Shown: piece after piece, positions 29,086 to 37,854 of the stretch
Layout: each line of letters opens with the position of its first letter
Numbering within the stretch: position 1 is the stretch's first letter
Assembly: GCA_964449215.1 (NCBI GenBank)
Contig: CAYVAH010000001.1
Span: 32,865-96,864, forward strand
Source of the DNA: Candidatus Undinarchaeota archaeon
Lineage (GTDB): Archaea; SpSt-1190
Direction of reading: 5' to 3'
Length of the DNA stretch: 64,000 nucleotides
Program-made: the position numbers and the translations under genes
The notes under the pieces: generated by a model
Databases searched by the model: none
Told to the model about the DNA's origin: nothing
Seen by the model: only the letters and a program-made list of their open reading frames with translations

Positions 29086-30229
29086 GCCGAAGAAAGTCAA
29101 AAAGGAGGAAGAAAAGCCCGCGGAAGAGGCCCCAGAAGAAGAAGGCGGGGAACCGGCAGCAGAGGAAGGAGAAAGAACAATAGGAGATATTGTTGAGGAG
29201 GAGGGGCTTGTTTCCGAACCTGAAAGGGAGTCAATGCTCAAGCAGCAGGGGACACCTGAGCTCTCTGAAGTTCTGATGCGCATTGACAGAATTGACGGGA
29301 AGCTGGAGCTCTTCAAAGGGATGCTCGATTCCTTCAACGAAAGACTCATAGAACTCAATGAACGCCTCGGGGACACCCGCAGGATGGTCTTCGACAGGGA
29401 AAAATGGGCCTCAAAGCTCGAAACGGAGTTCGAGAAAGTGGCAGGCATTGTGAAGGAACTTGACCCGGAGAAAATCGTAATGAGGTTCGAGAAGTTCAAG
29501 ACAAGCATTGAAAAACAGAATGCAACCCTGGAAAAGCTCAACGACCTCCTGAAGAACCTATCGGAGCGGATGAAGATTGCGGAGGGGAAACTCGAGAACG
29601 TTAAGAGCCTCGAAAACGTGATGAAGGCCGGAAAGACCGTTGAGGAGAAATTGAAGAAGATTCAGGAAGCGAAGACATATACGGACAAAATATCCGCGAA
29701 GATAGAGGCGATGTTCCTCGAAACGAATGAAAGGGTCGCCATGATGAAGGAAAACCTTGATAAGATTGAAAAGCATGAGTCGATGCTGGGCGACCTGCTG
29801 AAGGAAATTGAATCACTGAAGTTCAAGATAGATGAAGAGCTCGTGAAAAAGAGGGAGGTTGAGGAACTTATTGAGTCCGCAAAAGACGTAATCATAGAAG
29901 AAATCGTTGGGATAAACCCAGTTGCTTTTGACAACCTTCGAAGGAGGGTCGCGATATTGGAGAACAAGGGAAAAAGCACCAGAGAGCTCGAAGAGGAGCT
30001 GAAGAAATACCAGACACTTATGGATCAGGTTGAAAGGGATTTCCAGATGGGGCGGATAAAGGACGAAGCCAGGAACGAGCTGAAGGCCAGCACGGAGAAA
30101 AAGATAGAAGAAATCCGGCTGGTCCTTGAGAGCAGAAAGGGTCCAAAAAAGGTTGAGGGGAAGAAAGCAAAGGGAAAGGAAACCAAGTTGAAGGAAAAAC
30201 TTCTGAGCATGGGAAAGAAATCTACTTGA
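29051..30229 (+). CDS. K/E-rich cytoplasmic coiled-coil protein (start uncertain: TTG/GTG at 29051-29066; first ATG at 29234)
   Basis: Long ORF with heptad-like K/E/L-rich sequence throughout and no TM. Overlaps the previous gene across an A-run (ggcaaaaaagaag). SD-like GGAGGTGG at 29053-29060. Confidence 0.55.
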   Translation: MEVELLAKKKTKPKKVKKEEEKPAEEAPEEEGGEPAAEEGERTIGDIVEEEGLVSEPERESMLKQQGTPELSEVLMRIDRIDGKLELFKGMLDSFNERLIELNERLGDTRRMVFDREKWASKLETEFEKVAGIVKELDPEKIVMRFEKFKTSIEKQNATLEKLNDLLKNLSERMKIAEGKLENVKSLENVMKAGKTVEEKLKKIQEAKTYTDKISAKIEAMFLETNERVAMMKENLDKIEKHESMLGDLLKEIESLKFKIDEELVKKREVEELIESAKDVIIEEIVGINPVAFDNLRRRVAILENKGKSTRELEEELKKYQTLMDQVERDFQMGRIKDEARNELKASTEKKIEEIRLVLESRKGPKKVEGKKAKGKETKLKEKLLSMGKKST

Positions 30230-33200
30230 AAACCCTCTTCAGTTCCTCGAAGGTCTCGCGGGATATCAGCCCCTCTTCATATTGGCTCTTCAGTGTTTGA
30301 AGAACGTCAGATCCCCCTTCTGCTTCCCTTTTCTTCTTCACTATTTCCTCGAGCTTCTTCATCGCCCTCCTCTGCTCCCTCCCTTTCAGTATCTTGAACT
30401 TGTTTATGGCTATCACAATCAGGAGAATCAGAGCAAATATGGAAACGGCAATCACATACCAGTTCGGTGGAACCTCCGGGAGCGTGACTGTCGGCAGATA
30501 CCTCGGTTTTGAAATCTCCAGCCGGTATTTTATCTCCTCGATGGTGTTCTCCACATCAGATATCGTCTTGATTGCATCAACAGTCTGGTCCTTCTCGAGG
30601 TAGGTTTCAGCCACATCGAGCATTTCCCTGGATTTCCTGAGGAGGGAAAGAATCTTGGTAACATCACCCCCCCTCGCAGCAACCTTACCCGCCTGGTCCT
30701 CCAGATCCATAAGCTCCTCCCGGAGGGAAGCAATCCTCGCCCGGAGAGCCTCCTCCTGTGTCTTAAACACTATAACCTTGTAGAACTCCGAAACCTCCAC
30801 TTCACGGGAAATTATACGCATCTTGGTCACGTAGGTTCGGGCCGTGGCGTCCTCAGGGATCGTGAACTTCACGACAAGGTATCCACTTGACCCGGGAGAG
30901 AGGGATGCCACCTCCCTGACAACCTCGAACCAGTCCTTGTCTATGTCCTCAAAGAAAACTGTTATGTCGGAAAGGCCAACATCCCCTGTGTTCTTCACCT
31001 CGATGGTGAGATAACCCACCGAACCGCGGTTTATTATCATCTCATCCGGGAAGACGTTGGTTATTGTGAGCTCCATCACAGCAGCCTCAACCGGTGTTAT
31101 AATCTCAGGGGGGACCTCCTCCGGCGCAGCAGCTTCCACCACCCTGAAACCCCTCGAAACCTCAAGCGGGGGGTACACTGTCGAGTAGTTCAGAAGGACG
31201 TGGAGCGAGTAGCCCCCCGCTGACTGGTTGGAGTATATGGAAAGATTTGCAGTTAACGTGCGGTTGCCCCTGGCAGGAACGAATGTCGGCCTGTCATGGA
31301 CATAGGCATAAGTTCGATTCTGTGAATCCTCAATCCAGTATGAGAGAAGAACATCCTGGTCAACATCCCCGTAGTTCTCGAGCAGTATGGTGAAATTCAG
31401 GTCCTCACCCTGTGGCACCTCTGGGTCTATGCTGATTATATCAACGTCATAGGGTCCGCCAAAACTGACGCGGAAAGCCTTGAGCTTCCTCACCTGCCTC
31501 CCCCCTTGCTCAACTATAAGCTCCGCCAGATAGTATCCGGTGGTCGTTGGGAGGCTGTGCTTCGTCTGGTAGAGCCTGCTATTGTTCGTGACGTTGAAAA
31601 GCGAAAGCGAGCTGTTCGTGAAATAAAGATTCTCGGCCGAGTCATACACGTTCAGCGTGACTTCGTCCGGTTCCACCATAGGACCATCAGTATAGACGAG
31701 AGCGTAAAAGTGTGCCTGTATCGGCTGGCTTGAGTACCACACATATCCTACATCAAACTCAACATTATATTCCTCCCTGACGGAGAAGGAATACGTGGTG
31801 CTGTGATTAACTGTCTTGTTCGCCACCGGGTCCCGGTGCGAGGCATTCACAGTTATGGTGTAGTTGCCCAAGGGAGCATCATCGGGAATTGAAAATGTTG
31901 GTATCGGCAGCACCGTTCCATCGGACTGGAGCTCGTCGTGATATCGCAGGTATCCGAGCGAGTCGTTGAGCTTTAGAGAAACATTTGCAGGTATGGGAAT
32001 CCCGGACTCATCAGTGGTGTTTATGTATATGGATGCCGTTTCTCCCGTGTAGTATGTCCGGAAACCCGTTCCCACACTCGTGTGGAGTATTGGATAAACA
32101 TACAAGGTCAGGTTCTGACGGGAATAAAGCCCAAGGTTGTCTCTCGTCTCAACCTGCAAGGTGTAGTAACCGAACTCGTTGCTGTTCCCCCAGGTCCCGG
32201 GGTATGTGAGCTCGTAGTAGTAAGTCTCATTTGATTGATTCACGAGGTTCATGTCAGATGCCTGCACCGAGCCCCGGGGAAGAAACACAACGAGTCTGGT
32301 GAAGCTCAACCCCTGCCCGGATTTATCAGTGATATTCGCATAAACCGTTATGTCTTCAAGCTCCTGCGTAATATTCTTTGACAGTGTGGCATTTATCTCG
32401 GCAAGCTCTCTTGGTATCATACTCACGTTCAAATATCTCCAGGAGGGCTGTGCGACGCCAGCACTCACATTGTATGTGGCATTATAATAGTCCCTCGCGA
32501 CTCCGGTGAGATTCCAGAGTATGACAAAGAGGTGCACGCCCTGCGCTGGAACGGTGAAGTTGGTCTCATTGGTGTATGTATAGTTGGCGCTTTCCGGGGA
32601 AACGGTGAAGTTCAGTTCCACGTTACCCGTGTTGTTGACCATAACGTCGCACATCTTCCCCTCATCGAAAGCTACCTCGGTTGTGCAGTTCTCCGGGTGG
32701 AGCTCCCAGGTCCGGGAAACGGGAACTGTAATATTCAGGTACACAAAATCGTAACCATCATCGGAGCTTGTGTAATTGGCAGTTCCGGTATAATTGCCGG
32801 GGGAATAGCCGGGGGAGACATTCACATTCGCAGTCACATCAATCACAGAGCCAACAGGAATGAAGTCTATCTCGGGATAAAACGTTATGTTGAAATCATC
32901 CAGCCCAAGCACCGTTACACTCACCCCATTCACCTGGTCATTACCGGTGTTCCTGACGGTGAAGCCACCGATATCCGTGCTCTGACCGTGTGGCGCCGAA
33001 CCGGCCACATACGCTTCGTCTATCTGAAACTCCTTGTTCGAAAGAACTTCCACAGTGATGTTCGTGGTGTTGTATGTCACCCCTATTCCGGGATTCGCCC
33101 AAGAAACATTGACAACAACAGTGTAGTTCCCGGGCGTGCTCCGCTTCACAGCAAGCTCAAATGTCCTGAAACAGAACCCACCCACCGGCACGTCACCGCA

Positions 33201-35903
33201 GTTATACCTGTTGCCAGAAACGTTCGTGAGCCAGTAGGCCTCCGGGAGCTCCAGGGTGATGTTTGTGTCGAGGGCCGGAGAAGACCCTATATTCGTCGTG
33301 TTCACAGAAACCGTGAAATTCTGAAATTTATACCACCTCATCCTGTCAGAGGTGAGGGCGGAGGGCGTGGCGTTCACGCTCATAAAAGTCTCTATTATGC
33401 TAACCTGGACAGGTATGGAATCCCAGACGCCATTCTCCGAGGACGCATTTAGAGTACCATCAAAGGTACCACGCTCATGGTCACTTGGCATATACACCCA
33501 GACCTCCACAGAAGCATTTTCACCCTGGAAAATCAAGGAAACATTTGAAGGGGTGAAATTGAAAGTCATGGTGGGTATTCCTGTGACGTTGAACGTCACA
33601 TTCTGCAACTCGAAGTTTCCTTCGGATAAGACGGTTATATTCCCCATATAGTTCCACTCGCCTGGAGCGGCAGTTATGGAAATGTTCTCCTCGGCAATCC
33701 TGAGTGAGGGATTCGGGTCCACGGAAATGTTGAACGTGGTGTTGTAGCTGTCGGTGGTGTTGTCGGAGTTCAACCAGTCCACTGTGGCATTCACAAGATA
33801 AAACCCTGGAGTTTCATTTTCGGGGACCCACACATCAAAAAACCTGATGGAAGATTGAAAGAGGTCTATCGTACCAAGCTGTTCGAAGCTCGTGTTCACC
33901 CACCAATTCCCGGGGAGATTCAGGGTAATGTTGGTCGCGTAGGCGGTGCCGTTCCCGAGGTTGGTCACATTCGCCACCATCGTGAAGTTCTGTCCTTCAG
34001 AAAGGGTCACGTTATCTATGGACTCCCTGCCGCCTGTGAAATTCAGACCGACAGTCACATCCGTCACATACGTCACTGAGGTAAAGGTGTCCTGCGCCGT
34101 CCCTGTGTTGCCAAGTCTCGTAGCATTACAGACAAGTGTGAACACACCATAGTATGAGGGGGACACGAATTCTATCAGGTATGTGCCGTTCCCATAGTCA
34201 GTTACATTTGGGTTCGCATCTGTGGAGTCATACACACAGCTTATATTCGCCCCGGGGATGTATGTGTCATTACGGTAGTTGGTAACCTCCATGGTCGCAT
34301 TTATGGTGCGATTAACGAACCCGTAGTCATTTGAAATATTGAGTGACGCAGTGTAGGTATCAAACACAAAAAAGCTGGCGGTGGTCGTGTTCAGGAGCAC
34401 GTTCTTCTGGTCCCAGGCATAAGCCGTGATATTCCACTGACCTGTCGAGTTCGACTCGTTCAGGATGAAATAATTTGTGTAGAGGTCGTCCCCTGCCTGC
34501 GAATCCCCATGACTCCCGTCGTCATAAAGGGTCAGCGACAGGTCGCCCCCCTCAGACACAATGGTCGCATTCACGAGGGTTATCAGCCCGGAATCCACGG
34601 TGGCATTAACAAAAACTGTTACATTCTCCCCGCGGTTATAGCTTGAGTGTTCCGTTGAAGCGTTCAGGAACACCTCCCATTTTTCCGAAAGAGTCTTTGA
34701 CGTTTCCTCCCTGAAAAGCAACCTGTTCCTGAGGTTCCTGACTTGGGCGTCAGTCGGAGATCCCTTGATCGCGGAAGGGCTGTTGAAATGAAGTGCTGTC
34801 ACCTCATATAGGGTCTCATCTGGCTGAACCGTCACATTGGAAAGTTCAATACCCCCCCTCCCCCAGCTGTTGTTCCTGTTGACGGAAGCATAGGGACCCG
34901 AATCCTCAACATTTATGATACCAACGTGGAAGTTCGCGAACTCCGCGGCAAACCAGAACCACGAGGCAGGCTCGGAGGCATTCCCGATTATTATGCTGTT
35001 CGTCCCTGCCCTTTTAACATCAAAGAGCAAAGCACCAGCAGGAGTGGAATTGCGGGTTATGTTATAGTCCGCCGTGTTCTTGTAAATTTGCTCCACCTTT
35101 ATCCACTGGCTCTGATTGTAGAATATGTAACGCTTCACAATTTCACCTTCTGTCTGGTTTGTGGAGTTCCATACAACTTCCTTCCCTCTTTGCTCCACCA
35201 CGAGCCTTGCAGGACCCTGATAGAGAACTGTCATGTTGTTGCGAAGGTCGAACGTAAAGTTGTGTGTGTCATTGGAATACTGCATATACTCAATGGGGTT
35301 CTCCCCCTCAGACGGAGGAGACCAGAACTCATTCTCAGCATAGTCCTTTATTCTATAGATGCCTGAAACGTTGGCGCCCCGGGAGGTGTCTATCCAGTAT
35401 TCAAGACCTTTTGTGGTTCCGGAATCCTCAATGGTCACGTTGACCTGCAGCTCCTCGCCATCCCAGCTGTACGGGATGACAGTGTAGTTGATGGCGGGCT
35501 TGCTGTCGGTGTCATAGTAGAGACAAAAGACCCTCAGCTCGTTGGCCGCGAGGGTACCGTTCATTATGAACGCCAGCGTTCCGTGAAAATTCATCGAGGC
35601 GTTGAACCCCTGACCCTCATCGAACTGGCTCGGCAGCTCGAACATGGCACTCCCGCTGGAGGGATCCTGCTCTATGAGGCGGAGTGAAGTGGCGTTGATA
35701 GTCCCGCTTCCCCCAGAAGCATTCAGCTCAGCAGTAAGGTTCAGCGGGAACTCTATTGGCCAGTCTTCGCGGGAATACTTGGAAGCATTTACTTCGATAC
35801 ACACACGGTAATCCCAGCTGGAATCCCACCACTCCAGCTTCGCAAAAGCCGGGAGAACCAAAAGAAGCAGCAGCAGGGCTACCCGAAACCTCACGGAATT
35901 CAA
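30222..35903 (-). CDS. Large surface (S-layer-like) glycoprotein, 1,893 aa, with N-terminal signal peptide, C-terminal coiled-coil stalk, TM anchor and short cytoplasmic tail (start codon TTG at 35903 or GTG at 35894)
   Basis: N-terminus (M)NSVRFRVALLLLLLVLPAFA is signal-peptide-like. Very high NxS/T density. Coiled-coil segment at aa ~1720-1810. TM is WYVIAVSIFALILLIVIAINKF. TATA-like GGCTTAAATTAAAAGCC at 35909-35925. Convergent with the giant-gene operon, with 3' ends overlapping by 8 nt. Confidence 0.75.
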   Translation of the reverse strand: MNSVRFRVALLLLLLVLPAFAKLEWWDSSWDYRVCIEVNASKYSREDWPIEFPLNLTAELNASGGSGTINATSLRLIEQDPSSGSAMFELPSQFDEGQGFNASMNFHGTLAFIMNGTLAANELRVFCLYYDTDSKPAINYTVIPYSWDGEELQVNVTIEDSGTTKGLEYWIDTSRGANVSGIYRIKDYAENEFWSPPSEGENPIEYMQYSNDTHNFTFDLRNNMTVLYQGPARLVVEQRGKEVVWNSTNQTEGEIVKRYIFYNQSQWIKVEQIYKNTADYNITRNSTPAGALLFDVKRAGTNSIIIGNASEPASWFWFAAEFANFHVGIINVEDSGPYASVNRNNSWGRGGIELSNVTVQPDETLYEVTALHFNSPSAIKGSPTDAQVRNLRNRLLFREETSKTLSEKWEVFLNASTEHSSYNRGENVTVFVNATVDSGLITLVNATIVSEGGDLSLTLYDDGSHGDSQAGDDLYTNYFILNESNSTGQWNITAYAWDQKNVLLNTTTASFFVFDTYTASLNISNDYGFVNRTINATMEVTNYRNDTYIPGANISCVYDSTDANPNVTDYGNGTYLIEFVSPSYYGVFTLVCNATRLGNTGTAQDTFTSVTYVTDVTVGLNFTGGRESIDNVTLSEGQNFTMVANVTNLGNGTAYATNITLNLPGNWWVNTSFEQLGTIDLFQSSIRFFDVWVPENETPGFYLVNATVDWLNSDNTTDSYNTTFNISVDPNPSLRIAEENISITAAPGEWNYMGNITVLSEGNFELQNVTFNVTGIPTMTFNFTPSNVSLIFQGENASVEVWVYMPSDHERGTFDGTLNASSENGVWDSIPVQVSIIETFMSVNATPSALTSDRMRWYKFQNFTVSVNTTNIGSSPALDTNITLELPEAYWLTNVSGNRYNCGDVPVGGFCFRTFELAVKRSTPGNYTVVVNVSWANPGIGVTYNTTNITVEVLSNKEFQIDEAYVAGSAPHGQSTDIGGFTVRNTGNDQVNGVSVTVLGLDDFNITFYPEIDFIPVGSVIDVTANVNVSPGYSPGNYTGTANYTSSDDGYDFVYLNITVPVSRTWELHPENCTTEVAFDEGKMCDVMVNNTGNVELNFTVSPESANYTYTNETNFTVPAQGVHLFVILWNLTGVARDYYNATYNVSAGVAQPSWRYLNVSMIPRELAEINATLSKNITQELEDITVYANITDKSGQGLSFTRLVVFLPRGSVQASDMNLVNQSNETYYYELTYPGTWGNSNEFGYYTLQVETRDNLGLYSRQNLTLYVYPILHTSVGTGFRTYYTGETASIYINTTDESGIPIPANVSLKLNDSLGYLRYHDELQSDGTVLPIPTFSIPDDAPLGNYTITVNASHRDPVANKTVNHSTTYSFSVREEYNVEFDVGYVWYSSQPIQAHFYALVYTDGPMVEPDEVTLNVYDSAENLYFTNSSLSLFNVTNNSRLYQTKHSLPTTTGYYLAELIVEQGGRQVRKLKAFRVSFGGPYDVDIISIDPEVPQGEDLNFTILLENYGDVDQDVLLSYWIEDSQNRTYAYVHDRPTFVPARGNRTLTANLSIYSNQSAGGYSLHVLLNYSTVYPPLEVSRGFRVVEAAAPEEVPPEIITPVEAAVMELTITNVFPDEMIINRGSVGYLTIEVKNTGDVGLSDITVFFEDIDKDWFEVVREVASLSPGSSGYLVVKFTIPEDATARTYVTKMRIISREVEVSEFYKVIVFKTQEEALRARIASLREELMDLEDQAGKVAARGGDVTKILSLLRKSREMLDVAETYLEKDQTVDAIKTISDVENTIEEIKYRLEISKPRYLPTVTLPEVPPNWYVIAVSIFALILLIVIAINKFKILKGREQRRAMKKLEEIVKKKREAEGGSDVLQTLKSQYEEGLISRETFEELKRVFK

Positions 35904-35979
35904 AAACGGCTTAAATTAAAAGCCTTGCACCGAAAAAAACACGCTCCGCCAGAATTTTAGCTACTCTTGCATTTAAACA

Positions 35980-36192: not shown

Positions 36193-36621
36193 GTGCTTAA
36201 AGAATTTCTCACTCTGGTCCTCCTGTTAGCCGTTGTGGTATTTGTGGGGAGCGGGGAAGAACAATACTACAAGGCGGAGCTGCGGAAAGTCACAATATAC
36301 CCGCAGGTCGCCTATCTCACCCTCGAAACAAGGGATGGAAACCTTTCAATGACCGTGTCCCCATCGCAGGGTGTGGCAATAAGGGACGCCCTGAACGAGG
36401 CGAGCCACCCGAGACCCACCACTCATGACCTGGCCGCAGAACTGGCAAGACTTTCAGGGGTGAAAAAGCTTGTGGTTCACGACCTTGTGAACGGGACTTA
36501 CATTGCAAGCCTGCATCTTGGGGCGGGAGTGGTAGATATCCGACCGAGTGATGGGATTGTAGTGTGCATCCGAGATGGTTGCCCAATCTACGTGTCCCGT
36601 GAACTCATTGCCGGCGGCTAA
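36193..36621 (+). CDS. Bifunctional-nuclease (BFN/DUF151) domain protein with N-terminal TM segment (GTG start)
   Basis: Motifs GVAIRDALNE and RPTTHDLAAEL resemble the conserved core of the DUF151/BFN family. N-terminal hydrophobic segment LTLVLLLAVVVFVG. Confidence 0.5.
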   Translation: MLKEFLTLVLLLAVVVFVGSGEEQYYKAELRKVTIYPQVAYLTLETRDGNLSMTVSPSQGVAIRDALNEASHPRPTTHDLAAELARLSGVKKLVVHDLVNGTYIASLHLGAGVVDIRPSDGIVVCIRDGCPIYVSRELIAGG

Positions 36622-37153
36622 AAATGACAAGGCTGTAGAGCCGATACAAAAATGAATAGAGTGCTATTGCCGAAATAACAAAAAGCGTTTCGATACCCTT
36701 ACCAAAAAAGATGCCTGTGGCTATAACTAGTATTCTTAGTGGCCTTAGGGTTGTCTTTTCAACAAATCTTCCTCTAGCAAGTCCCTCCATGATAGCCCCG
36801 GAATAGCTGGAGAGGAGTGTGAGGAGAACTGTCATCATACCTATTAAAGGAGAGTACATAATTCCCATTCCCACAACTATTATGCTGTCACTTATACGGT
36901 CACACAATCTATCTACAGCAGACCCCACGGAAGAGACCATCCCGTATTTCCTCGCCACCGTCCCATCAATAACATCAAGCATCCCGGAAATCAACACAAA
37001 AATTGCTGAGAGGGTTGTGTGACTCATAAAAAGCAGTACTCCTGCAATTGCCATTGAAACAGCCCCCAAAACCGAGATTTTTATCGGGTCAATCTTCGGG
37101 AGGACCTTCCCCATCTTCGGCTCAAGAAATCTTTTCACAGTCAGCATATTCAC
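36605..37153 (-). CDS. CDP-alcohol phosphatidyltransferase family protein (archaeal phospholipid head-group synthase-like)
   Basis: Signature D-G-x2-A-R-x8-G-x3-D-x3-D present as DVIDGTVARKYGMVSSVGSAVDRLCDRISD. Multiple TM segments. Confidence 0.7.
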   Translation of the reverse strand: MNMLTVKRFLEPKMGKVLPKIDPIKISVLGAVSMAIAGVLLFMSHTTLSAIFVLISGMLDVIDGTVARKYGMVSSVGSAVDRLCDRISDSIIVVGMGIMYSPLIGMMTVLLTLLSSYSGAIMEGLARGRFVEKTTLRPLRILVIATGIFFGKGIETLFVISAIALYSFLYRLYSLVIFSRRQ

Positions 37154-37196
37154 AATATTCCCTAGACATGTAATAGTTAAATGTTACCACGCCAAA

Positions 37197-37210
37197 ACTT
37201 TTTAAGAAAA
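37197..37210 (+). promoter_or_regulatory. TATA/BRE-like promoter element of tRNA-Asn (ctTTTTAAGAAAAG), ~25 nt upstream of tRNA 5' end
   Basis: AT-rich TTTTAAGA box at the canonical archaeal distance. Near-identical element (TTTTAAGAAAAGCTCGACCAAAAG) precedes tRNA-Ser. Confidence 0.55.
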
Positions 37211-37229
37211 GCTTGACCAAAACTTGTAA

Positions 37230-37331
37230 GCCCCGGTAGCTTAGCGGCAGAGCGCCTGGCTGTTACCCCGTTTCGGGTCACGGAGCGGGACAGAAACCAG
37301 GCGGTCGCAGGTTCGAATCCTGCCCGGGGCG
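37230..37331 (+). tRNA. tRNA-Asn (anticodon GTT) with a 30-nt intron at the canonical 37/38 position (37266-37295)
   Basis: Hand-folded. Acceptor GCCCCGG/CCGGGGC, D-stem GCTT/GAGC, anticodon stem CCTGG/CCAGG, loop CU-GTT-A, intron ccccgtttcgggtcacggagcgggacagaa, T-arm GCAGG-TTCGAAT-CCTGC, discriminator G, no encoded CCA. Confidence 0.75.
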
Positions 37332-37376
37332 CTTCCGCCCCCAACAAAATCCCCAACAATCTGAAGTCAATAAAAT

Positions 37377-37400
37377 GCCGGGATGGCCGAATGGTAAGGC
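37377..37400 (+). repeat. Exact 24-nt duplicate of the 5' half (acceptor + D-arm) of the downstream tRNA-Ser, followed by a duplicated promoter element containing an 8-bp-stem hairpin (GAGCTTTT-AAG-AAAAGCTC)
   Basis: gccgggatggccgaatggtaaggc occurs at 37377-37400 and again at 37437-37460. The intervening 36 nt carry the TTTTAAGAAAAGCTCGACCAAAAG promoter motif. Confidence 0.8.
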
Positions 37401-37436
37401 ACCGAGCTTTTAAGAAAAGCTCGACCAAAAGTGGAT

Positions 37437-37517
37437 GCCGGGATGGCCGAATGGTAAGGCGCTAGCCTGGAGAGCTAGTTCCCTCTGGGATTAGGGGTTC
37501 GAATCCCCTTCCCGGCG
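37437..37517 (+). tRNA. tRNA-Ser (anticodon GGA), type II with long variable arm
   Basis: Acceptor GCCGGGA/TCCCGGC, anticodon stem CTAGC/GCTAG with loop CT-GGA-GA, 14-nt variable arm TTCCCTCTGGGATT, T-arm AGGGG-TTCGAAT-CCCCT, discriminator G. Confidence 0.8.
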
Positions 37518-37518
37518 T

Positions 37519-37854
37519 ATGCGTGTGTTCTGCCCCTCCAAGGCGAAGGAACCATATCGGAAGGTTATTGAGGAACTTTCAAGGAGGGCGAGGGTTGAAG
37601 TGATATTCTCCAAAAGACTTCCCGATGATGGAGTGGTCCTGGACGAGAAGGGGGAACCACTGACAATGGAATTGCTGGAGAAACTTGTGGAGTCCGGGAA
37701 AGACCTTATAGTTGGCGGACCTGATGGAACCAACGCAAAGGGAAGAAGAATCTCCCTCGGGGACTACACGCTCAATCATCAGATAGCAATAATAGTCCTG
37801 CTGGACCTTCTGTTCCGTGTCAGGTTTCCCAGGCATCCATACAACAGGCACTAG
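37519..37854 (+). CDS. rlmH: RlmH-like SPOUT rRNA (pseudouridine) methyltransferase, short form (111 aa) starting 2 nt after tRNA-Ser
   Basis: C-terminal half aligns to bacterial RlmH: LIVGGPDG...ISLGDYTLNHQIAIIVLLDLLFRVRF...HPYNRH versus LLIGGPEGL...[23 protein letters not shown]...HPYHRE. Lacks the first ~15-40 aa of typical RlmH. Confidence 0.6.
   Translation: MRVFCPSKAKEPYRKVIEELSRRARVEVIFSKRLPDDGVVLDEKGEPLTMELLEKLVESGKDLIVGGPDGTNAKGRRISLGDYTLNHQIAIIVLLDLLFRVRFPRHPYNRH

Follow-up and report, generated by a model that had tools for sequence, protein, structure and literature searches.

The gene for tRNA-Ser(GGA) in a 64,000-nt stretch of a Candidatus Undinarchaeota genome (contig CAYVAH010000001.1; the window, for short) is preceded by a second copy of its own first 24 nt and, between the two copies, by a box built around a perfect hairpin. 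Fragment and box make up a 60-bp unit that is polymorphic in natural vent populations and that recurs at five or more tRNA genes on several contigs from uncultured archaea. We regard it as reasonably probable, and as the best explanation overall, that a box with a dual role in starting and ending transcription came in through the same event that duplicated the tRNA 5' end, and that the array subsequently changed in size by slippage.

The original prediction, made from the letters of the window, had reported a duplicated 24-nt 5' half of tRNA-Ser, and this stands: the 24-mer GCCGGGATGGCCGAATGGTAAGGC has exactly two copies in the 64 kb, at 37377 and 37437, when up to 3 mismatches are allowed, and two matches were obtained in 0/100 shuffles. 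The repeat is really 26 nt long, ATGCCGGG...AAGGC (ATGCC...AAGGC), at 37375-37400 and 37435-37460, and consists of AT followed by nt 1-24 of tRNA-Ser(GGA); its downstream copy covers positions -2 to +24 of the gene itself, that is, the 5' acceptor strand and the whole D-arm. The window holds one other close direct repeat of at least 18 nt, a 76%-identical pair, and no other window tRNA is preceded by a duplicate of its own 5' part. Within the 34 nt between the copies a palindrome surrounds a TATA-like box, with arms CGAGCTTTT (37403-37411) and AAAAGCTCG (37415-37423), the loop AAG and then ACCAAAAGTGG; the perfect hairpin described earlier is thus real, with 9 bp rather than 8. The spacer had also been said to repeat the promoter motif of tRNA-Asn, and indeed the 23-mer TTTTAAGAAAAGCTCGACCAAAA (37408-37430) is identical at 22/23 positions to the box upstream of tRNA-Asn (37200-37222). 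The motif common to both, TTTTAAGAAAAGCT(T/C)GACCAAAA, has no further site in the window at up to 3 mismatches and is absent upstream of the window's tRNA-Pro and tRNA-Gln.

Sequencing error or collapsed reads had been named as what would undo the observation. The repeat structure is no such error, because contigs of several assemblies also have it, at 99.0-100% identity to the window and with 0-17 single-nucleotide polymorphisms (SNPs) relative to it; given these SNPs, several strains are represented. These contigs come from several ENA, JGI and Logan assemblies, in which the RlmH-like protein encoded just downstream (37519-37854) is identical. One extra unit is present in the window and in L001, L002, L004 and L005 (L numbers denote the loci fetched for comparison), and L003 (JGI 3300021467) has a second complete 60-bp unit, that is, two extra. 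The Logan assembly of SRR7051285 is broken here, between a contig on the left with the end ...AAT+A+ACCG (L048) and one on the right with the start GTGGAT+A+G (L006), A being the pseudo-5' copy; at k=31, branching at precisely these two points is to be expected only with a box-A-box junction and thus with at least two extra units. L007 (SRR7051242) begins at the same point as L006.

A sister lineage (L032, which equals L040, and L041), with flanks at about 89-92% DNA identity to the window, has tRNA-Ser preceded by units as well, here of 59 bp each, two extra in L032 and one in L041. Its unit has a 1-nt deletion in the D-arm of the pseudo-5' part and ends in the six bases GTAATT rather than GTGGAT. 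The unit is copy-number polymorphic (1 or 2 extra) in both lineages, and a zero-unit allele was seen in none of the 10 contigs that represent them. The comparison of related genomes suggested at the outset therefore finds the extra half-tRNA in close strains and in the sister lineage, and finds it lacking in the more distant L014 and L042 (71-73%) and L020 and L043 (69-73%). By the RlmH-like protein the nearest NCBI metagenome-assembled genome (MAG) is L014, at 71% identity; among GTDB genomes it is nearest to relatives at 53-61% identity in MAGs of Candidatus Altiarchaeota, and a single Undinarchaeota MAG has a relative as well.

A head-to-tail repeat whose copy number differs among individuals is a minisatellite, or variable-number tandem repeat (VNTR), and the 60-bp unit is one. 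Imagine that it were nothing else, a neutral array without a role, with tRNA-Ser transcribed from the tRNA-Asn promoter or an older one and trimmed by RNase P. The strain-variable copy number would fit, as would the lack of a T-stretch between tRNA-Asn and the unit and the older promoter that L032 has kept upstream (see below). However, the box has changed less than such a scenario would allow: fourfold sites that differ between the two lineages number 12/50 and 47/160 (24-29% at silent sites), and the tRNA-Asn trailer differs at 14/34 positions, whereas the first 32 nt of the box, its core, are identical across both and the pseudo-5' part differs by one indel. By our own arithmetic the chance of an identical 32-nt core under neutrality is about 4e-5. 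The lack of a zero-unit allele, three loci at which the box stands at promoter distance, the older promoter's loss, which the window lineage tolerated, and a TTTT run in the box that would tend to halt read-through likewise argue against a roleless array, which we consider improbable.

Table 1. Features of the tRNA-Asn/tRNA-Ser region of the window
Feature	Position	Strand	Remarks
tRNA-Asn proximal promoter box, paralogue of box B	37194..37229	+	motif TTTTAAGAAAAGCTTGACCAAAA at 37200-37222; TATA-like TTTTAAGA
tRNA-Asn(GTT) with 30-nt canonical intron (37266-37295)	37230..37331	+	Rfam RF00005, 60.3 bits; perfect hBHBh' motif
tRNA-Asn trailer/spacer	37332..37374	+	no T-stretch; the relatives' older tRNA-Ser promoter RGCTTAAAAAAGAYAAAYG is absent
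Pseudo-5' copy A	37375..37400	+	AT + tRNA-Ser nt 1-24 (acceptor 5' strand and whole D-arm)
Box B (element E)	37401..37434	+	ACC; 9-bp palindrome 37403-37423; GACCAAAA 37423-37430; fast-evolving GTGG(AT)
TATA-like TTTTAAGA of box B	37408-37415	+	TTTT 37408-37411 is the sole T-stretch of the box
Second copy of the 26-nt repeat	37435..37460	+	-2 to +24 of functional tRNA-Ser
tRNA-Ser(GGA), class II	37437..37517	+	intact cloverleaf
Short SPOUT/RlmH-like open reading frame (ORF)	37519..37854	+	111 aa; ATG 2 nt past the tRNA-Ser 3' end

Note that ARAGORN, run without its intron option, overlooked the tRNA-Asn(GTT) gene. In L014 and L042 tRNA-Asn is intronless, and, to judge by these sequences, the intron has for that reason been gained or lost inside this clade. 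Elsewhere in the window, a GC-clamped A/T near-palindrome, GGCTTAAATTAAAAGCC (35908-35924), lies just upstream of the start of a 1893-aa ORF (30222-35903, minus strand).

Recurrence of the unit and a family of hairpin boxes

All fetched loci were scanned for tRNAs preceded by a duplicate of their own 5' end. A box in forward orientation stands upstream of a tRNA at 5 independent loci (Ser-GGA, Asn, Ser-GCT, Gln and Leu), and at 5/5 of them a pseudo-5' fragment of that same tRNA lies directly 5' of the box, the gap between the two being 0-3 nt. The Gln and Leu loci (L028 and L030) had been retrieved for their box content only, so that pseudo fragments were not a selection criterion there. Most tRNAs in the related loci have neither box nor fragment. 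In L032 and L041 a 48-nt insertion before tRNA-Asn is made up of a decayed copy of tRNA-Asn nt ~5-25 (p=0.0006-0.004) and the box, and the flank before it is homologous to the flank that abuts tRNA-Asn in L014 (score 45; 0/5000 shuffles). Two 71-nt units (nt 1-17, box and 26 nt) precede tRNA-Ser(GCT) in L013, with older decayed boxes further upstream; tRNA-Gln(CTG) in L028 follows nt 2-25 (an exact 24-mer) and a box, with a further unit upstream; and tRNA-Leu(CAG) in L030 follows a TATA-like box at -31 to -22 of the pseudo copy, nt 1-17, the box and 19 nt. Across loci the duplicated part of the tRNA measures 13-27 nt, and at box loci 34-54 bp separate the copies.

Older pseudo parts are decayed (tRNA-Asn in L032, the first unit in L013, and L030). 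In the minimum free energy (MFE) fold of the read-through RNA from the window, the partner of the 3' acceptor strand is the acceptor strand of the upstream copy, and misfolding of this kind would fit the decay. Whatever their history, pseudo-5' fragments can mislead tRNA annotation as well as finders of attachment (att) sites and genomic islands, and the repeats break short-read assemblies.

Other duplications have different layouts. In L038 (216-294, minus strand) tRNA-Phe is preceded by its own first 27 nt, with a 53-nt insert and no box. In L034 (12134-12237, minus strand) a tRNA-Tyr with a ~150-nt intron is preceded by its own first 13 nt, and the 91-nt insert, again without the box, has a different GC-clamped A/T palindrome at promoter distance. 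In L039 (1270-1450) the final 16 nt of tRNA-Leu(TAA) and 9 nt of its trailer occur twice, on either side of a box, a layout that mirrors the 5' duplications at the 3' end.

A structure-based scan of all fetched loci yielded 26 elements with the consensus C-NNNN-TTTT-loop-AAAA-N'N'N'N'-G-A(C/T)CAAAA, whose 5-bp arms covary (GAGC/GCTC, AAGC/GCTT, AAAC/GTTT, AACC/GGTT and others). In L010, an Altiarchaeota MAG, an element begins directly past the 3' end of tRNA-Leu, and in L011, an Undinarchaeota MAG, one lies directly past the 3' end of tRNA-Ser(GCT), between convergent genes. In L014 and L042 an inverted copy abuts +1 of tRNA-Ser, with no duplication there; the window box is identical at 24/27 positions to the reverse complement of the L042 tRNA-Ser 5' flank, and the L014 flank is similar. 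Because members of the family stand after tRNA 3' ends and inverted copies stand at tRNA-Ser in relatives, the box is, judging from these comparisons, host sequence and not foreign DNA. We know of no description of a hairpin box family with both terminator and promoter roles, and with its compensatory arms, fixed A(C/T)CAAAA tail and frequent position right after tRNAs the family merits description as a regulatory element.

Some related or similar sequences lie further afield. Tandem hairpin boxes of this family, about 27 nt apart, occur on two low-GC metagenome contigs (L036, 8036-8170; L024, 1397-1510), with varied compensatory arms and loops (for example AAGC/GCTT, AGCC/GGCT, CC/GG), each followed by GACCAAAA, GATCAAA or similar. 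Older box copies in L028 (300-360) and L013 (3190-3225), both on the minus strand, carry an insertion in the loop of the palindrome, a GC-rich hairpin of ~16-22 nt such as TCACCCCGCCTACTGCGGGGGG. The exact 23-mer is also found on unrelated low-GC or bacterial-looking contigs such as L025, and an exact 27-mer, AAGCTTTTAAGAAAAGCTTGACCAAAA, lies past tRNA-Lys(TTT) in a tRNA-Tyr/Lys/Thr(AGT) cluster from lake metagenomes (L025, L026, L029, L031, L033). We do not count matches of the L025 type as related boxes: their TTGACC-N17-TAGAAT resembles a bacterial sigma-70 promoter, and we read them as coincidence within a common motif family.

One box at several tRNA genes, each time behind a piece of the tRNA, also brings integration to mind. 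Integrases of the pTN3 type use the 5' half of an archaeal tRNA as their attB, and the restored tRNA is then expressed from a promoter of the element (Cossu et al. 2017, reviewed in PMC8371274). The arrays might accordingly be remnants or miniatures of such an element, the pseudo part being attL, the intact tRNA attR and the box the element promoter, and this topology agrees with the known one (PMC8371274). It would also fit that the pseudo copy retains the ancestral flank or promoter in L030 and at both tRNA-Asn and tRNA-Ser of L032. Yet the narrow range of distances between copies, always with the same junction, is not what independent decay of kb-sized elements would yield; neither a kb-sized integrase element nor foreign insert DNA lies between the copies; and relatives free of the duplication have family members too, placed past tRNA 3' ends or, in inverted form, ahead of tRNA-Ser. 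In the window, moreover, the 64 kb contain no third copy of the repeat, and the Pfam neighbours within ~3 kb are housekeeping (BFN, CDP-OH_P_transf, SPOUT, CysRS, Aldedh), with no integrase among them. Neither the 24-nt repeat nor the 19-nt palindrome nor the 23-nt box occurs in IMG/VR as an exact match. Four 18-nt IMG/VR matches to the start of the repeat, tried as a viral or plasmid attP, stop at 18 nt in GC-rich DNA without a tRNA and look like chance. The earlier suggestion that the repeat is the scar of a mobile element thus finds no direct support, and we think an integrative origin rather unlikely, a remnant or miniature element being nonetheless the chief competitor of our reading.

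A different kind of integration was considered on account of size. CRISPR spacer integration duplicates the target repeat, and a 26-bp repeat with a 34-bp spacer falls within the dimensions of CRISPR arrays (repeat 23-47 bp, spacer 26-50 bp), as if Cas1-Cas2 had acted off target and created a neo-CRISPR with one spacer. Size alone is not diagnostic, however. In two-unit alleles (L003, L032) both spacers are identical, the length duplicated is not constant among loci, and the same "spacer" stands at five tRNA genes as a host box at promoter distance; the window has no further spaced repeats or CRISPR-like array, and the called neighbours are without Cas domains. This reading is already largely refuted and hardly credible.

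The box as a candidate promoter and terminator

The TATA-like TTTTAAGA lies at -29 to -22 of tRNA-Ser, at -30 to -23 of tRNA-Asn and at -31 to -24 of tRNA-Gln in L028, which, assuming a start near tRNA +1, is where an archaeal TATA box would be expected (an A/T-rich box ~26 nt upstream of the start). An older promoter-like box, RGCTTAAAAAAGAYAAAYG, is present upstream of tRNA-Ser in L014, L020, L032, L042 and L043. It is gone from the window, where it falls within a 1.44-kb difference from L032; the right-hand limit of this difference and the left edge of the array are the same point. Because this older upstream promoter has been deleted, the hairpin box is, as far as the sequence can tell, the only nearby promoter candidate for tRNA-Ser in the window lineage, and it is probably the working promoter of that gene. 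TTTAAG/CTTAAA is the most enriched hexamer in the non-ORF DNA of the window.

If the box is a working promoter, the arrays record promoter replacement at essential genes, with the old promoter driving a stub and the new one placed at the correct distance from the gene. The earlier view of the repeat as a relic is half right: a duplication it is, but promoter distance, the position as sole nearby candidate in the window and the conserved 32-nt core speak against a dead one. Nor is there a need for a decoy that binds TFB/TBP, as had also been proposed, with the box placed as a real promoter would be. The idea that tRNA genes of the clade rely on the box as their promoter in general was rejected, given that most tRNAs in related loci, and tRNA-Pro and tRNA-Gln of the window, do without it.

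Around the tRNA pair the window (36605-37199) and L032 (1040-2482) differ by two indels. Upstream of tRNA-Asn, the minus strand of the window encodes a paralogue of CDP-alcohol phosphatidyltransferase; L032, by contrast, has two genes between tRNA-Asn and tRNA-Ser, one for an epimerase and another CDP-OH_P_transf gene.

The promoter of tRNA-Ser may matter to a second gene. The spacing between the tRNA-Ser 3' end and the RlmH-like ATG is conserved in L014, L020, L032, L042 and L043, and from this adjoining position it follows that the ORF probably depends on the tRNA-Ser promoter(s), its mRNA presumably being part of the tRNA-Ser transcript. The arrangement suggests a tRNA-mRNA co-transcript from which a cut by RNase Z would give an almost leaderless RlmH-like mRNA.

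T-stretches are an established archaeal termination signal, for example in Haloferax volcanii (PMC7237163). Runs of T5-T6 come right after the tRNA 3' ends in L010 and L011, just as in T-stretch terminators; in the window copy a T4 run begins 11 nt after the pseudo-5' part, and the palindrome provides a T-run on both strands. By analogy with T-stretch terminators, we infer that transcripts would end at the box.

The extra unit could itself encode something: a functional small RNA of about 35 nt that mimics a tRNA 5' half (D-arm plus hairpin), or a leader with a regulatory effect on tRNA-Ser or the RlmH-like gene. In favour of this, both lineages have conserved the pseudo-5' part, the fold of the unit combines a D-arm-like and a 9-bp hairpin (z = -2.3), and where alleles have several units, every pseudo part follows a box at promoter distance and is itself followed, about 35 nt on, by TTTT. 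But concerted evolution with the real tRNA 5' part would explain the conservation equally, older pseudo parts clearly decay, and the single pseudo part of the window allele has no box upstream. No Rfam family matches either: with Rfam 15 only the two tRNAs score above threshold and nothing spans 37377-37436 as a unit at E<=10, the chance-level match to YrlA (13.4 bits against a gathering score of 69, E=7.4; 37300-37403) overlapping only the 5' part of the unit. A functional RNA is, in our estimation, very improbable.

The MFE fold described above might also suggest that the upstream copy is the true 5' exon of a tRNA with a non-canonical intron, or of a split or permuted tRNA, and that the next 60 nt are spliced out. 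No bulge-helix-bulge is found in 26/26 equivalent registers, though, while the tRNA-Asn intron was recovered as positive control (4/6/6), and in the sister lineage such an exon would have a base missing from its D-arm. We give this reading next to no credence and regard it as refuted, unless splicing can proceed by a route that needs no such motif.

Origin of the module

How might such a module arise? It is a heritable tandem of 59-60-bp units, each composed of the non-functional first 24 nt of the tRNA and a hairpin box of 34-36 nt. The box would have been copied from a nearby member of its family, either the tRNA-Asn box or an inverted one like that abutting tRNA-Ser in relatives. Its installation would also have duplicated the first ~25 nt of the tRNA, with template switching or slippage at the hairpin as the likeliest means. 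Short homologies between D-arm and left box arm are present at some junctions (CGAGC for Leu, GAGC for Asn, AAGC for Gln). Once in place, the TTTT run would halt transcripts from tRNA-Asn or from an upstream unit, and the A/T core, centred near -26, would serve as the TATA box from which tRNA-Ser starts at or near +1. Slippage or unequal recombination between the 26-nt repeated 5' parts would shift the size of the array, and collapse to zero units would delete the proximal promoter; the array may persist because collapse to a single 26-nt copy would remove the box. The recurrence at several genes suggests that tRNA genes can acquire new promoters in a way not described before.

A number of observations weigh against this account. 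First, the anatomy of the module, its polymorphism, its conservation, its recurrence and the hairpin covariation are observed, whereas we infer promoter and terminator activity from position and conservation alone, and the mechanism of origin is likewise a reconstruction. Some of the ENA, JGI and Logan assemblies possibly derive from shared samples, and the independent observations are then fewer than the contigs. Second, the TATA-like box lies further from the tRNA in L030 (about -42) and L013 (-51), and a leaderless start is for this reason not general; L032 keeps the older promoter 51 nt upstream of its array, and the box may not be essential there. The predicted misfolding of read-through RNA would be a cost and no benefit. 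Third, in the window, L032 and L030 the array opens with a tRNA fragment rather than a box, and a plain tandem duplication of promoter plus 5' part is therefore insufficient; in keeping with this, the sequence before the first fragment has no significant similarity to the box (window p=0.81, L032 p=0.29). More generally, the junction between pseudo-5' part and box is nearly constant at independent loci, and at tRNA-Ser as well as at tRNA-Asn the duplicated part stops where the D-arm does, at its 3' end. Simple slippage accounts for neither regularity, and the restart exactly at tRNA +1 is left unexplained by the proposed mechanism.

Two further candidates were tried and rejected. A tandem duplication of the tRNA followed by an internal deletion that keeps the terminator is attractive for L013 compared with L011; it fails in the window because the RlmH-like ATG directly follows tRNA-Ser in all relatives, with no downstream box. 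A supposed decayed pseudo-5' part in the spacer hairpin of L014 is not significant (p=0.42). Against a plain tandem duplication of ancestral promoter plus 5' part it also counts that the proximal tRNA-Asn box is unlike the distal ancestral flank (p=0.6-0.95).

A bolder reading would be a self-propagating promoter/terminator cassette that moves between tRNA genes by a specific mechanism, each time duplicating the first 13-27 nt and restarting at +1. It might travel by recombination guided by D-arm and acceptor, as a miniature non-autonomous partner of an integrase that targets tRNA 5' halves, or through stalling at the edge of the initiation complex. Box and fragment together (-36 to -1 and +1 to +24) are about the size of the footprint of an archaeal initiation complex, a correspondence that may be fortuitous. 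We hold such a cassette to be unlikely; were it true, it would be an enzyme-light "mobile promoter" specific to archaeal tRNA genes that leaves copy-number-variable arrays behind.

Comparison with known systems

Literature searches found no precedent for a module of promoter box plus half-tRNA, and the known systems each resemble it in part. As in att duplications of the pTN3 type, a 5' fragment is left behind the original promoter and the intact downstream tRNA would come under a newly supplied one. The known cases, however, enclose a kb-sized element and a split integrase gene, whereas the module has 34-54 bp inside, no integrase, tandem and polymorphic units, and a "new promoter" from a host box family. 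A survey of Thermococcaceae traced partial tRNA genes to two sources only, the integration of 9-23-kb elements and one CRISPR spacer (PMC9897764). There, too, a partial copy adjoins a full one, but the window case fits neither catalogued source: a short tandem module of a tRNA's own 5' part and a hairpin box lies beyond those listed.

With minisatellites the module has in common a head-to-tail period of 59-60 bp and a copy number that varies among strains of one population. Unlike them, its unit combines a box with the start of an essential gene, its last unit is part of the functional gene, and an array reduced to nothing would leave that gene bare of the promoter. Archaeal T-stretch terminators (PMC7237163) and promoters with a B recognition element (BRE) and TATA box are matched by T4-T6 runs on both strands, by placement after tRNAs (L010, L011) and by an A/T core at about -26; the conserved 9-bp hairpin, the compensatory arms and the fixed A(C/T)CAAAA tail set the box apart from both.

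Template switching at quasi-palindromes and microhomology-mediated duplication with templated insertion are established in bacterial and human genetics. The putative mechanism here would share with them a palindrome at the breakpoint, short homologies at some junctions (GAGC, AAGC, CGAGC) and an insert copied from nearby, possibly inverted; the endpoint at tRNA ~17-26 and the restart at +1 are more regular than usual. Finally, the split and leaderless tRNAs of Nanoarchaeum equitans (for the RNase P-free context see PMC10100707) likewise involve a tRNA 5' piece with its own upstream promoter, placed for a start at tRNA +1. In our case, by contrast, the break lies at nt 24/25 and not 37/38, a complementary joining sequence and a bulge-helix-bulge are absent, and a complete tRNA follows.

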